In this document: piece by piece, positions 1,548 through 8,196 of the stretch
How the letters are laid out: the number at the start of each line of letters is the position of its first letter
Position numbering within the stretch: position 1 is the first letter of the stretch
The notes under the pieces: generated by a model
Told to the model about the DNA's origin: nothing
Database searches by the model: none
Seen by the model: only the letters and a program-made list of their open reading frames with translations
NCBI GenBank assembly: GCA_000004985.1
Contig: GG739079.1
Strand: one strand, 5' to 3'
DNA: 8,226 bases
DNA from: Naegleria gruberi
Taxonomy: Eukaryota
Made by a program: the position numbers and the translations under genes

Positions 1548-1702
1548 TTAAAAAGAAACAAGATCAGTAAATTCCACAACTTTTGGATCTAAATTGTAAG
1601 CTACTCTCACAATTTCTGGATTATTTCTCAGAGTTTCACTTGCAAATTCTAATGCCATGGGCGTTGTCTTGATGCATTGAAGAACAATTTCCTCATCATT
1701 TC
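1548..1702 (-). CDS. C-terminal fragment (50 aa + stop) of an unidentified protein, truncated upstream by the assembly gap: ...NDEEIVLQCIKTTPMALEFASETLRNNPEIVRVAYNLDPKVVEFTDLVSF*
   Basis: The minus-strand frame that is open for all 51 codons from the gap edge to TAA (1548..1550) is not the frame reported in the track. The track frame terminates after 18 codons at TAG 1649..1651. The longer frame has protein-like composition and is followed by AATAAA. It may or may not belong to the same gene as the fragment on the other side of the gap. Confidence 0.45.
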
Positions 1703-4700
1703 NNNNNNNNNNNNNNNNNNNNNNNNNNNNNNNNNNNNNNNNNNNNNNNNNNNNNNNNNNNNNNNNNNNNNNNNNNNNNNNNNNNNNNNNNNNNNNNNNN
1801 NNNNNNNNNNNNNNNNNNNNNNNNNNNNNNNNNNNNNNNNNNNNNNNNNNNNNNNNNNNNNNNNNNNNNNNNNNNNNNNNNNNNNNNNNNNNNNNNNNNN
1901 NNNNNNNNNNNNNNNNNNNNNNNNNNNNNNNNNNNNNNNNNNNNNNNNNNNNNNNNNNNNNNNNNNNNNNNNNNNNNNNNNNNNNNNNNNNNNNNNNNNN
2001 NNNNNNNNNNNNNNNNNNNNNNNNNNNNNNNNNNNNNNNNNNNNNNNNNNNNNNNNNNNNNNNNNNNNNNNNNNNNNNNNNNNNNNNNNNNNNNNNNNNN
2101 NNNNNNNNNNNNNNNNNNNNNNNNNNNNNNNNNNNNNNNNNNNNNNNNNNNNNNNNNNNNNNNNNNNNNNNNNNNNNNNNNNNNNNNNNNNNNNNNNNNN
2201 NNNNNNNNNNNNNNNNNNNNNNNNNNNNNNNNNNNNNNNNNNNNNNNNNNNNNNNNNNNNNNNNNNNNNNNNNNNNNNNNNNNNNNNNNNNNNNNNNNNN
2301 NNNNNNNNNNNNNNNNNNNNNNNNNNNNNNNNNNNNNNNNNNNNNNNNNNNNNNNNNNNNNNNNNNNNNNNNNNNNNNNNNNNNNNNNNNNNNNNNNNNN
2401 NNNNNNNNNNNNNNNNNNNNNNNNNNNNNNNNNNNNNNNNNNNNNNNNNNNNNNNNNNNNNNNNNNNNNNNNNNNNNNNNNNNNNNNNNNNNNNNNNNNN
2501 NNNNNNNNNNNNNNNNNNNNNNNNNNNNNNNNNNNNNNNNNNNNNNNNNNNNNNNNNNNNNNNNNNNNNNNNNNNNNNNNNNNNNNNNNNNNNNNNNNNN
2601 NNNNNNNNNNNNNNNNNNNNNNNNNNNNNNNNNNNNNNNNNNNNNNNNNNNNNNNNNNNNNNNNNNNNNNNNNNNNNNNNNNNNNNNNNNNNNNNNNNNN
2701 NNNNNNNNNNNNNNNNNNNNNNNNNNNNNNNNNNNNNNNNNNNNNNNNNNNNNNNNNNNNNNNNNNNNNNNNNNNNNNNNNNNNNNNNNNNNNNNNNNNN
2801 NNNNNNNNNNNNNNNNNNNNNNNNNNNNNNNNNNNNNNNNNNNNNNNNNNNNNNNNNNNNNNNNNNNNNNNNNNNNNNNNNNNNNNNNNNNNNNNNNNNN
2901 NNNNNNNNNNNNNNNNNNNNNNNNNNNNNNNNNNNNNNNNNNNNNNNNNNNNNNNNNNNNNNNNNNNNNNNNNNNNNNNNNNNNNNNNNNNNNNNNNNNN
3001 NNNNNNNNNNNNNNNNNNNNNNNNNNNNNNNNNNNNNNNNNNNNNNNNNNNNNNNNNNNNNNNNNNNNNNNNNNNNNNNNNNNNNNNNNNNNNNNNNNNN
3101 NNNNNNNNNNNNNNNNNNNNNNNNNNNNNNNNNNNNNNNNNNNNNNNNNNNNNNNNNNNNNNNNNNNNNNNNNNNNNNNNNNNNNNNNNNNNNNNNNNNN
3201 NNNNNNNNNNNNNNNNNNNNNNNNNNNNNNNNNNNNNNNNNNNNNNNNNNNNNNNNNNNNNNNNNNNNNNNNNNNNNNNNNNNNNNNNNNNNNNNNNNNN
3301 NNNNNNNNNNNNNNNNNNNNNNNNNNNNNNNNNNNNNNNNNNNNNNNNNNNNNNNNNNNNNNNNNNNNNNNNNNNNNNNNNNNNNNNNNNNNNNNNNNNN
3401 NNNNNNNNNNNNNNNNNNNNNNNNNNNNNNNNNNNNNNNNNNNNNNNNNNNNNNNNNNNNNNNNNNNNNNNNNNNNNNNNNNNNNNNNNNNNNNNNNNNN
3501 NNNNNNNNNNNNNNNNNNNNNNNNNNNNNNNNNNNNNNNNNNNNNNNNNNNNNNNNNNNNNNNNNNNNNNNNNNNNNNNNNNNNNNNNNNNNNNNNNNNN
3601 NNNNNNNNNNNNNNNNNNNNNNNNNNNNNNNNNNNNNNNNNNNNNNNNNNNNNNNNNNNNNNNNNNNNNNNNNNNNNNNNNNNNNNNNNNNNNNNNNNNN
3701 NNNNNNNNNNNNNNNNNNNNNNNNNNNNNNNNNNNNNNNNNNNNNNNNNNNNNNNNNNNNNNNNNNNNNNNNNNNNNNNNNNNNNNNNNNNNNNNNNNNN
3801 NNNNNNNNNNNNNNNNNNNNNNNNNNNNNNNNNNNNNNNNNNNNNNNNNNNNNNNNNNNNNNNNNNNNNNNNNNNNNNNNNNNNNNNNNNNNNNNNNNNN
3901 NNNNNNNNNNNNNNNNNNNNNNNNNNNNNNNNNNNNNNNNNNNNNNNNNNNNNNNNNNNNNNNNNNNNNNNNNNNNNNNNNNNNNNNNNNNNNNNNNNNN
4001 NNNNNNNNNNNNNNNNNNNNNNNNNNNNNNNNNNNNNNNNNNNNNNNNNNNNNNNNNNNNNNNNNNNNNNNNNNNNNNNNNNNNNNNNNNNNNNNNNNNN
4101 NNNNNNNNNNNNNNNNNNNNNNNNNNNNNNNNNNNNNNNNNNNNNNNNNNNNNNNNNNNNNNNNNNNNNNNNNNNNNNNNNNNNNNNNNNNNNNNNNNNN
4201 NNNNNNNNNNNNNNNNNNNNNNNNNNNNNNNNNNNNNNNNNNNNNNNNNNNNNNNNNNNNNNNNNNNNNNNNNNNNNNNNNNNNNNNNNNNNNNNNNNNN
4301 NNNNNNNNNNNNNNNNNNNNNNNNNNNNNNNNNNNNNNNNNNNNNNNNNNNNNNNNNNNNNNNNNNNNNNNNNNNNNNNNNNNNNNNNNNNNNNNNNNNN
4401 NNNNNNNNNNNNNNNNNNNNNNNNNNNNNNNNNNNNNNNNNNNNNNNNNNNNNNNNNNNNNNNNNNNNNNNNNNNNNNNNNNNNNNNNNNNNNNNNNNNN
4501 NNNNNNNNNNNNNNNNNNNNNNNNNNNNNNNNNNNNNNNNNNNNNNNNNNNNNNNNNNNNNNNNNNNNNNNNNNNNNNNNNNNNNNNNNNNNNNNNNNNN
4601 NNNNNNNNNNNNNNNNNNNNNNNNNNNNNNNNNNNNNNNNNNNNNNNNNNNNNNNNNNNNNNNNNNNNNNNNNNNNNNNNNNNNNNNNNNNNNNNNNNNN

Positions 4701-5595
4701 NNNNNNNNNNNNNNNNNNNNNNNNNNNNNNNNNNNNNNNNNNNNNNNNNNNNNNNNNNNNNNNNNNNNNNNNNNNNNNNNNNNNNNNNNNNNNNNNNNNN
4801 NNNNNNNNNNNNNNNNNNNNNNNNNNNNNNNNNNNNNNNNNNNNNNNNNNNNNNNNNNNNNNNNNNNNNNNNNNNNNNNNNNNNNNNNNNNNNNNNNNNN
4901 NNNNNNNNNNNNNNNNNNNNNNNNNNNNNNNNNNNNNNNNNNNNNNNNNNNNNNNNNNNNNNNNNNNNNNNNNNNNNNNNNNNNNNNNNNNNNNNNNNNN
5001 NNNNNNNNNNNNNNNNNNNNNNNNNNNNNNNNNNNNNNNNNNNNNNNNNNNNNNNNNNNNNNNNNNNNNNNNNNNNNNNNNNNNNNNNNNNNNNNNNNNN
5101 NNNNNNNNNNNNNNNNNNNNNNNNNNNNNNNNNNNNNNNNNNNNNNNNNNNNNNNNNNNNNNNNNNNNNNNNNNNNNNNNNNNNNNNNNNNNNNNNNNNN
5201 NNNNNNNNNNNNNNNNNNNNNNNNNNNNNNNNNNNNNNNNNNNNNNNNNNNNNNNNNNNNNNNNNNNNNNNNNNNNNNNNNNNNNNNNNNNNNNNNNNNN
5301 NNNNNNNNNNNNNNNNNNNNNNNNNNNNNNNNNNNNNNNNNNNNNNNNNNNNNNNNNNNNNNNNNNNNNNNNNNNNNNNNNNNNNNNNNNNNNNNNNNNN
5401 NNNNNNNNNNNNNNNNNNNNNNNNNNNNNNNNNNNNNNNNNNNNNNNNNNNNNNNNNNNNNNNNNNNNNNNNNNNNNNNNNNNNNNNNNNNNNNNNNNNN
5501 NNNNNNNNNNNNNNNNNNNNNNNNNNNNNNNNNNNNNNNNNNNNNNNNNNNNNNNNNNNNNNNNNNNNNNNNNNNNNNNNNNNNNNNNNNNNNNN
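1703..5595. other. Assembly gap: 3,893 consecutive N; true length and content unknown
   Basis: Uninterrupted run of n from 1703 to 5595. All ORFs spanning it (1649..6670 -, 1677..5675 +) are artefacts of X translation. Confidence 0.99.
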
Positions 5596-6595
5596 TTCTT
5601 ACTCTATCTACTAATACCAATATAACTGAAAGCTTATCAAGTTCAATTAAAGTATTCATTGAATTAGGACCATAACCTTGCTGTTCTAATTGTTTACTAA
5701 TATTAGGAGTGTTATCTGTTAATTTCACTACATATACCTTCTTGGATCTATTTTTTAAATAGTTAATCAGAGAAGAAGACAACATATCAGCATGGTCTTT
5801 GCTTTTCAAACGAATTACACCCATAACTGGCTCTTCAGAAAGGTAAATATTTCTAATTATTTCAGCTGAAGTTGTCTTACTTTCATTGATTTTGTTAATT
5901 GCCTCCTCGTACTCTTTAACAACTGCATTGGACGCTTCTTTCATGGTATTAGTATTACCAATGATCTTGTCTTGTTTAAACTCAAGTTCTTCAATAGATC
6001 TATAACTGGGAGTTCCATAGCGTTCTGGAGAGGTTGTCCTAAGATGATTCCAGTCAACATTATTTTCTATTCTAAAGTCATAGTTGCCAAACAGGAGAAC
6101 ATTTGCAGTTGCAGTGACTAACAATATTCCTAAATAAAGTTTTTTTCCTTTTTGTAAAACTTTCTTCCTCTTCTCGTTGATTTGTTTTAAGAAATCATTG
6201 ATGGTACTGTTTTTAGCAATGCCCCAGTGTGCTTCATCATGAACCAAAAGGTGTAACTCATTTTCATTGTCAAATCTTTCAATGAATGAATTAGTTTTTT
6301 CTTTACCAACATTGTCGCTGTTAACAATAACACTAGTGAATGCTGATAGTCCAATGGCCTCTTTAAATAATTCAAAGTCGTCAGAGGTTTGGTTTCTTAG
6401 TGCAGTAAATGTTGGGCCTATTATACACAAGTTAATGGATTTGAATTTTGTTTCCTTATATCCAGCAAGAGAAGATTGCAACCATTTTTCTACAACTTTT
6501 AAAGCAATATTGTATTGTGAACGGTAGATTTTAAGACTTTGGAAGGACAACAATTCAGAGTTGTCTGGTGTAATTACTTCAGGTGCAACCAACAT
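5596..6595 (-). CDS. N-terminal 333 codons of an SF2 (DExH-type) helicase-like protein, 3' end lost in the gap; motif II DEAH and motif III TAT present, canonical Walker A not visible
   Basis: Track ORF frame is open from 6670 to the gap. First ATG at 6593..6595 (MLVAPEV...) follows an A-run (aaaaaaaATG). The track's own M is a TTG. LHLLVHDEAHWG (DEAH at 6227..6238) is followed 38 aa later by LGILLVTATA (TAT at 6107..6115), the classic motif II-III spacing. The distal part (PVMGVIRLKSKDHADMLSSSL...KVYVV...SVILVLVDRVR) resembles helicase domain 2 motifs IV/V. Where a P-loop would be expected, the sequence is IIGPTFTA (6401..6418) instead of GxGKT. No exact family can be assigned from sequence alone. 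Confidence 0.65.
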
Positions 6596-6783: not shown

Positions 6784-7091
6784 TACAATGGAAACAATTG
6801 TGATCAACCAATTTGTTACAAGAAGAATGCCACCGATGCTTGTAGCTATCATGGTAAATGTGTTTCGTATAATAATGGTGTTTGTAATGATGGTATGGAA
6901 ATAAATGTGAAAGTTTTGTTAATTGTTTTGGCAAGTTGAAGAATGATTCAATGGTTTGTTCAGGCAATGGTAATTGTTCTTCTCCAAACAATTGCACATG
7001 CTCGCAAGGTTTTCTTGGCTATGATTGTAGTATTCATACTTGTTCTGGACTTTCGTATAATAATTCTCAAGTATGCTTAGCAAAATCATAG
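6784..7091 (+). CDS. Cysteine-rich EGF-like (tenascin-type EGF) coding region in two frames; needs a short intron (6893..6963, 71 nt, or 6884..6963, 80 nt) or a +1 frameshift; no start codon identified (partial exon(s) or pseudogene)
   Basis: Frame A (6784..6892) reads YNGNNCDQPICYKKNATDACSYHGKCVSYNNGVCNDG, then a stop at 6937. Frame B (open 6891..7091, stop TAG 7089..7091) reads ...MVCSGNGNCSSPNNCTCSQGFLGYDCSIHTCSGLSYNNSQVCLAKS*. C-S-G-x-G-x-C-x5-C-x-C-x2-G-F-x-G-x-D-C-S is the tenascin/teneurin-type EGF consensus, and C-S-x-H-G-x-C is its first half. GTATGG at 6893 or GTAATG at 6884, joined to the acceptor ttgttCAG at 6961..6963, restores a single frame. Frame A has a TAA at 6781..6783, no ATG and no upstream YAG, so the 5' boundary is unresolved. 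Confidence 0.5.
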
Positions 7092-7485: not shown

Positions 7486-7824
7486 TCATAAATTAATGAC
7501 ATCTCTTTTTGGACAATCAGTGACCAACCATTGATAGTAGAATGCTTGTGGTGATAATGGCACATTACCTTCCTCTAATACAATGGCAAGCTTTGGCCTT
7601 TGAGAAATTAGTGTTTCTAATAGTTCAAGTTTAGGCTCAGTTTGTAGATTTAGATATTCAAGTTGCGGCCAGCAATTAATGTTTTCTAGTAAAAAATTAA
7701 AGAGACCTAAATGAGTGCTTTCAATAACTTTCAAGTTGGGAAATGATTCTGTGAGAATTGAATACATTCTTTTAGAATCTCTGTAATTGGATCCAATCAA
7801 ATTTCCCACCCAAATCCTTTCCAT
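7486..7824 (-). CDS. 112-aa ORF with RNI-like leucine-rich-repeat character (F-box/LRR-type C-terminal region?); may be the 3' exon of a longer gene
   Basis: ATG at 7822..7824, TGA at 7486..7488. The sequence ...FPNLKVIESTHLGLFNFLLENINCWPQLEYLNLQTEPKLELLETL... fits the LxxLxLxxCxxL pattern of RNI-like LRRs. 112 stop-free codons is unlikely by chance in this AT-rich window. Product assignment is pattern-based only. Confidence 0.5.
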   Translation of the reverse strand: MERIWVGNLIGSNYRDSKRMYSILTESFPNLKVIESTHLGLFNFLLENINCWPQLEYLNLQTEPKLELLETLISQRPKLAIVLEEGNVPLSPQAFYYQWLVTDCPKRDVINL

Positions 7825-8077: not shown

Positions 8078-8196
8078 GGCTACGGCCATATCACGATGAA
8101 TGCACCTCATCCCGTCCGATTTGAGAAGTTAAGCATCGTCGAGCCACATCAGTACTGAGGTTGGAGACAACTTGGGAACCTGTGGTGCTGTAGTCT
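8078..8196 (+). rRNA. 5S ribosomal RNA gene (eukaryotic, RNA polymerase III transcribed), complete
   Basis: GGCTACGGCCATATCACGATGAATGCACCTCATCCCGTCCGATTTGAGAAGTTAAGCATCGTCGAGCC...AGTACTGAGGTTGGAGACAACTTGGGAACCTGTGGTGCTGTAGTC. Universally conserved 5S blocks are present: CCAUA, CCCGUCCGAU, AAGUUAAGC, AGUAC and GGGAA. The 5' GGCUACGGC pairs with the 3' GCUGUAGUC to form helix I. Length is ~119 nt. Confidence 0.9.

Follow-up and report, generated by a model that had tools for sequence, protein, structure and literature searches.

The whole stretch of DNA analyzed here, 8,226 bases long and called the window, has a GC content of ~31% and contains protein-coding stretches on both strands, a 5S rRNA gene and a long run of N (Table 1). 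The N-run is 3,893 bases long and accounts for 47% of the window. Its length is not a round number, and it represents either a deliberate mask or a scaffold gap of estimated size. Exact 42-mers from the window had no match in the genome, viral and metagenome contig collections. A helicase-like open reading frame (ORF) on the minus strand remains open until it reaches this run. The visible frame ends precisely where the N-run begins, and no stop codon lies there. Only the N-terminal part of the helicase protein is visible because its ORF enters the N-run. The original prediction described a clean DEAH helicase without a recognizable Walker A motif and did not mention the N-run; the protein it described is truncated. 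All of the peptide stretches that it quoted are present in the ORF. A 1,673-residue ORF in the ORF listing was rejected as an artifact of translating N as X.

Table 1. Features of the window and of the visible helicase ORF
Feature	Position	Strand	Residues	Evidence or remark
Homocysteine S-methyltransferase exon	1-~996	-		PF02574, E 9e-40; runs off window
DUF4116 repeat, NDEEIVLQCIKTTPMALEFASETLRNNPEIVRVAYNLDPKVVEFTDLVSF then stop	1550-1700	-		PF13475, E 1e-12; emerges from N-run
N-run (assembly gap or mask)	1703-5595			Conceals remainder of helicase gene
Visible helicase ORF	5596-6595	-	1-333	ATG at 6595; 333 codons open; meets N-run at 5596
Visible part of second RecA-like lobe	5597-5827	-		Strands listed separately
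Motif V strand, SVILVLVDRVR	5597-5629	-	323-333	
Second-lobe strand, VYVVKL	5720-5737	-		
First strand of second lobe, VMGVIRLKS	5801-5827	-	257-265	
Motif III, LGILLVTATANV	6098-6133 (TAT 6107-6115)	-	155-166	Family alignment
Motif II (Walker B), LHLLVHDEAHWGI	6218-6256 (DEAH box 6227-6238)	-	114-126	Family alignment
Motif Ia, strand and helix start, INLCIIGPTFTALRNQT	6386-6436	-	54-70	Family alignment, DDX1 alignment
Cys-rich EGF-like coding stretch	~6790-7090	+		EGF_2 22.5 bits, at cutoff; teneurin-type EGF 22.9 bits
112-residue ATG-to-stop ORF	7486-7824	-		Leucine-rich-repeat-like pattern
5S rRNA gene, complete, eukaryotic-type	8078-8196	+		Rfam RF00001, 105 bits, E 6e-23

The neighboring features were annotated from the same window. 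The homocysteine S-methyltransferase exon begins directly after a probable intron acceptor, ttacag, at ~1000. Its protein and DNA are ~99% identical to an ENA metagenome contig (L003; ERZ929261/ERR1078381, PRJEB11402) that differs from the window by a 26-nt indel inside an intron of this gene, and its best named relatives are from Naegleria fowleri and N. lovaniensis at 46-47% identity. These matches point to an AT-rich amoeba resembling the Heterolobosea as the source of the window. The DUF4116 repeat is read in a different frame from the helicase ORF and is part of either a second masked gene or a downstream exon. The EGF-like stretch reads through only with a one-base frameshift near 6895 (gatggt^atggaaataaatgtgaa) and lacks an obvious start codon and signal peptide; a sequencing error, an unrecognized intron or a pseudogene fragment may be the reason. 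The 112-residue ORF had no Pfam match and no exact record in the protein collection. The 5S rRNA gene is a single dispersed copy beside protein-coding genes, and directly after it comes a T-run of the kind seen at pol III terminators.

Family membership and visible motifs of the helicase protein

Pfam profiles were used to assign the visible protein to a family. Residues 23-294 matched PF20692 with 38.0 bits (curated cutoff 26.2) and an E of 1e-9, and the match covers positions 3-268 of the 716 in the profile. PF20692 is the family named "Circularly permuted SF2 helicase found in GREB1 proteins". The families originally put forward for checking the protein, DEAD, ResIII, Helicase_C and SNF2, had no match even at E ≤ 10. 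An NCBIfam scan of the protein gave no match, and a PDB sequence search with the single protein returned nothing relevant. One further match was to the mad4 model of PADLOC, part of the candidate defense system 'mads', at residues 75-144 (~6164-6373, minus strand; E 6e-6) around the DEAH box. This match may reflect the shared context of helicase motif II only.

At E ≤ 1e-3, no relative of the window protein came out of a word-indexed homology search, and exhaustive phmmer against 1.84 billion cluster representatives recovered 47. No representative more than 50% identical to the window protein turned up. The best relatives are P0001 (668 residues, 38% identity, E 2e-51) and P0002 (1,083 residues, E 2e-47). 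All 47 appear to come from protists or environmental eukaryotes, and the named ones are from Acrasis kona (Heterolobosea), Amoeboaphelidium occidentale (an aphelid) and Lithocolla globosa (a nucleariid, from EukProt). Across its full visible length, the query is collinear with the relatives. PF20692 was detected in 18 of the 19 full-length relatives scanned, with E values from 1e-13 to 1e-24, and the remaining one, P0040, scored just under the cutoff (24.9 bits, E 1e-5). A metagenome search for related loci returned two distant loci only, at 28-31% identity.

The visible residues have the two-lobe RecA-like fold of a helicase. The clean DEAH and TAT motifs that were read from the sequence at the outset are borne out both in the ORF and in the family alignment. 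In motif II, D120 and E121 never vary across the family and H123 and G125 hardly do, and a strand is predicted at residues 113-120. Motif III is TAT in the window protein and SAT in most relatives, with A162 and T163 invariant, a predicted strand at residues 154-160 and an alignment to the SAT of DDX1. The downstream stretches that had been assigned to helicase domain 2 do belong there: one is the strand that opens the second RecA-like lobe, and the other is the strand of motif V. The N-run cuts motif V at VDRVR, right before the family-conserved MGERIP. Every conserved family residue is retained in the visible 333 codons.

Upstream of these motifs lies GPTFTA, which the original prediction had taken for a stretch in the position of a P-loop. 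It falls within a conserved GPxxxxLxxQT element that is present in 33 of the 47 relatives, and most of the others are fragments that start further downstream. The P, L, Q and T of this element are nearly invariant in a 22-sequence family alignment, and a set of 18 sequences shows no variation at P, L and Q. A strand (residues 53-60) followed by a helix (residues 64-81) is predicted at this site.

Position of the Walker A motif and probable circular permutation

A Walker A pattern, [AG]x4GK[ST], is absent from the ORF and from all six frames of the visible window, so the earlier observation that none precedes the DEAH box stands. One explanation offered for this absence was a true start in an unrecognized upstream exon encoding a canonical Walker A. 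The organism has introns, as in the neighboring methyltransferase gene with its probable acceptor, but the 150 nt before the ATG hold five stops in frame. The spacer beyond it is 195 nt, close to the ~190 bp first reported, and then the EGF-like coding stretch begins on the opposite strand. The relatives align from query residue 2-20, mostly with ~10-55 residues before that point, and no upstream Walker A occurs in any of them, those with long N-terminal extensions included. The 5' end of the gene needs no extra exon because the relatives align from so close to its start and have equally short N-termini. A hidden upstream exon is thus extremely improbable.

A motif table was built over all 47 relatives to locate their ATP-binding motif. 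The order is GPxxxxLxxQT, hhhHDEAHWG, LLVSAT, the second lobe (MAVIRL, hhVhDxhxMGERIP and QDVGRCAGH), a spacer of 62-93 residues and then hhhLDAEPQIGKTGAhLS. Eighteen relatives were informative, having motifs Ia, II and VI plus enough downstream sequence. In all 18, [AGS]x4GK[ST], mostly AEPQIGKT, occurs 62-93 residues past motif VI and 286-397 residues (median 331) after the DEAH box; in none of the 18 does it occur before the DEAH box. The G, K and T of this motif are nearly invariant family columns. The homologs' Walker A, whose possible alignment with GPTFTA had been raised as a check, instead follows motif VI, and GPTFTA aligns with motif Ia. Relatives that depart from the pattern are truncated (P0007 and P0015) or visibly broken or chimeric (P0039 and P0042).

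In PF20692, positions 658-708 of 716 are matched by the Walker A regions of P0027 (residues 470-528), P0023 (548-589) and P0040 (592-641), which places these regions at the C-terminal end of that model. The possibility that the GKT belongs to an independent second P-loop domain was considered and rejected. The GKT sits in a single strand-loop-helix, with helices and then a methyltransferase fold after it, and it lies inside the Pfam helicase model. The closest genomic relative is locus L001 on an AT-rich JGI metagenome contig, where the ORF that follows the P0003 ORF carries ILDAQQQIGKTGAM and then ADCGCG methyltransferase motifs. The helicase ORF and the Walker A/methyltransferase ORF of L001 overlap by 4 nt (5305-5308) in different frames. 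A frameshift, programmed frameshifting or a short intron that prokaryotic gene-calling software got wrong could account for this overlap.

An un-permutation test was performed with the 18 relatives. The Walker A unit, from 14 residues before the motif to 20 after it, was moved ahead of the Ia-III core (A1), and a shuffled Walker A segment placed ahead of the same core served as the control (A2). Searched against the PDB, the A1 profile matched DDX1 (8tbx_A) with a modest E of 1.2e-3 and DDX19 with an E of 0.12, whereas the A2 control gave no helicase match below an E of 0.8. Pfam DEAD was matched by 9 of 18 members in A1 (best E 6e-6) versus 6 of 18 in A2 (best E 1e-4), and ResIII by 8 of 18 versus 2 of 18. 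The DEAD alignment of member 1 spans profile positions 17-161 in A1 and 102-161 in A2. A1 and DDX1 are collinear at motif I (AEpQiGKTGA/AETGSGKTGA), motif Ia (lgPsfvdLknQt/VEPS-RELAEQT), motif II (ihDEAh/VLDEAD) and motif III (vSAT/CSAT), and INLCIIGPTFTALRNQT of the window protein aligns with LIVEPSRELAEQT of DDX1 in this profile search. ResIII alignments of the relatives in their native order start at position 50-52 of the profile, just past the Walker A of that model. The Walker A unit of P0001 grafted onto the Ia-III core of the window protein raised the cpSF2 score from 28.9 to 50.9 bits. The graft gave no DEAD or ResIII match in Pfam, and the test therefore works at the profile level only. 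The collinearity of the un-permuted profile with a DEAD-box protein therefore assigns GPTFTALRNQT to motif Ia, equivalent to PTRELAxQ, and not to an eroded P-loop.

These data bear on the other explanation offered at the outset, a degenerate pseudo-helicase, taken here as a dead enzyme whose P-loop decayed in place to GPTFTA and which only binds nucleic acid. The permuted helicase of animal GREB1 is described as catalytically inactive (PMC7968844, PMC6163654), the visible window contains no GK[ST], and family motif VI, QDVGRCAGH, has no counterpart of the final arginine in the canonical QxxGRxxR. Nevertheless, GPxxxxLxxQT is conserved among the aligned relatives and matches motif Ia, not motif I. 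An intact AEPQIGKT is found elsewhere in 18 of 18 relatives together with the invariant D and E, the near-invariant H and S-A-T, which is unexpected for a dead enzyme. Decay of a P-loop in place is accordingly a very improbable account of GPTFTA.

The ORF very probably encodes the N-terminal 333 residues of a circularly permuted GREB1-type SF2 helicase (PF20692) from a sparse protist subfamily that has its ATP-site unit at the C-terminal end. In this family, the strand, P-loop and helix that open the N-terminal RecA-like lobe (motif I) have shifted to the C-terminal end of the helicase module. The linear order is then Ia, Ib, II (DEAH), III (SAT/TAT), the second lobe with IV, V and VI, and finally I (AEPQIGKT). 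The protein therefore begins with motif Ia. The ATP site would be complete only once the C-terminal strand-loop-helix folds back beside the DEAH strand. The apparent lack of a Walker A very probably comes from a circular permutation that was already known, together with the cut made by the gap, and a clean DEAH helicase without a P-loop is explained without a dead enzyme or a hidden exon. Circularly permuted domains defeat reasoning from motif order; here, truncation by a gap was added.

The permuted arrangement predicts what the N-run conceals. Among 24 relatives, the Walker A lies 91-127 residues (median 102) after motif V, and the C-terminus lies 319-611 residues (median 386) after it. The window gene would thus have its own Walker A ~100 codons into the N-run, predicted at ~5215-5323 if the gene is intronless, with the gene ending at ~4440 (range 3760-4640). 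The N-run should also contain the rest of motif V, a motif VI resembling QDVGRCAGH, and an Rrp8-like methyltransferase domain. These predictions extrapolate from relatives just 23-39% identical to the window protein. The prediction of a complete gene competes with a truncated or decayed copy, either a pseudogene or an assembly-broken fragment, that would have neither Walker A nor methyltransferase. Such a copy would fit with the end of visible sequence at residue 333, the frameshift required in the neighboring EGF-like stretch, the broken or chimeric state of some database relatives (P0039 and P0042) and the lack of any >50% identical cluster representative. It does not fit with 333 clean codons in DNA of 31% GC that keep all conserved family residues, or with a cut that falls exactly at the N-run start and not at a stop codon. 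A decayed copy is therefore improbable.

Methyltransferase fusion in the relatives and possible function

The long relatives continue past the Walker A with hADCGCGxxG, GxDh, VGDM and FCLSLFE. Methyltransf_8 was detected at E ≤ 0.01 in 13 of the 19 relatives scanned and some SAM-methyltransferase model in 16 of the 19; no glycosyltransferase domain was found in the 19. By analogy with the relatives whose C-terminal region is present, the helicase of the window protein would be followed by an Rrp8/nucleomethylin-like SAM-dependent methyltransferase. Other accessory regions were also seen. An OTU-like cysteine protease domain (PF02338, 22.5 bits; cutoff 23.3) occupies residues 76-193 of P0018, N-terminal to the permuted helicase and methyltransferase. 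P0048 from Amoeboaphelidium has an uncharacterized C-terminal extension of ~300 residues, and in P0039 a leucine-rich-repeat-like tail replaces the Walker A and methyltransferase. The permuted helicase module seems to combine with varied accessory domains.

Conservation of motifs I, II and III and of the GR in motif VI makes it probable that the protist subfamily has ATPase activity, in contrast to animal GREB1, which is described as inactive. This activity may still fall short of full competence, as the family motif VI is without the last canonical arginine. In the most likely mechanism, the ATP site would be completed by the C-terminal P-loop unit, and an ATP-driven nucleic acid translocase or remodeler would present a base to the fused methyltransferase. 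Rrp8 makes m1A in rRNA, and for this reason RNA is the more plausible substrate. This specific role, a translocase or remodeler feeding a methyltransferase, is speculation from domain content and is put forward tentatively. A broader proposal is held with similar reserve. The clade of Heterolobosea, aphelids, nucleariids and environmental eukaryotes might possess an active permuted GREB1-type helicase with a split ATP site closed by a C-terminal P-loop unit that tethers an Rrp8-like methyltransferase. The result would be an ATP-coupled machine for nucleic acid base methylation, possibly near the ancestral active state behind the inactive, glycosyltransferase-linked GREB1 of animals.

Such a base-methylating machine, if this reading is true, would be undescribed so far, and a literature search for a permuted SF2 helicase joined to a methyltransferase gave nothing relevant. 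The permutation itself was already known; new here is a protist clade that looks catalytically competent and methyltransferase-fused, unlike animal GREB1. Human GREB1 is a cancer-related protein. Confirmation would provide a tractable, probably active counterpart of a domain deemed inert in the human protein, and would hint that amoebae may methylate RNA or DNA in an ATP-dependent way.

Comparison with known systems

The permuted helicase domain of GREB1 was reportedly defined by Iyer et al. in 2013. One paper describes GREB1 as having a circularly permuted SF2 helicase and reports proteins like GREB1 from Heterolobosea and other protists (PMC7968844). The window protein, taken together with its relatives, shares the permuted order of the cpSF2-GREB1 domain (PF20692), whose model starts at motif Ia/II and ends with a Walker-A-type strand-loop-helix. 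Canonical SF2 helicases of the DExH/DEAD-box and RIG-I/Dicer-like types (for example DHX37, Dhr1, Prp22, DRH-1 and DDX1) differ in two respects: motif I precedes Ia, whereas it comes after VI in the family of the window protein, and they have the final motif VI arginine that this family does without. The collinear I-Ia-II-III order of canonical DEAD, DEAH-box and ResIII proteins was not found in the window protein, which has no match to their Pfam models and no motif I in the canonical place.

Animal GREB1 and GREB1L differ from the window protein at the N-terminus and in the motifs themselves, and from its relatives at the C-terminus. They have an N-terminal Zn-binding domain, whereas the ~20 residues ahead of the conserved helicase region in the window protein contain neither a Cys/His cluster nor a Pfam match. 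Their motifs are described as inactive (PMC7968844), whereas DEAH and TAT are intact in the window protein and the relatives keep GKT, DE, SAT and GR. They carry a C-terminal TAGT/Fringe-like glycosyltransferase in place of the Rrp8-like methyltransferase of the relatives. The window protein is not a strict GREB1 ortholog because no scanned relative shows the glycosyltransferase domain. Rrp8/nucleomethylin (Methyltransf_8, PDB 2zfu), an rRNA m1A methyltransferase, is in turn without a helicase fusion, unlike the relatives of the window protein whose C-terminal region is present.
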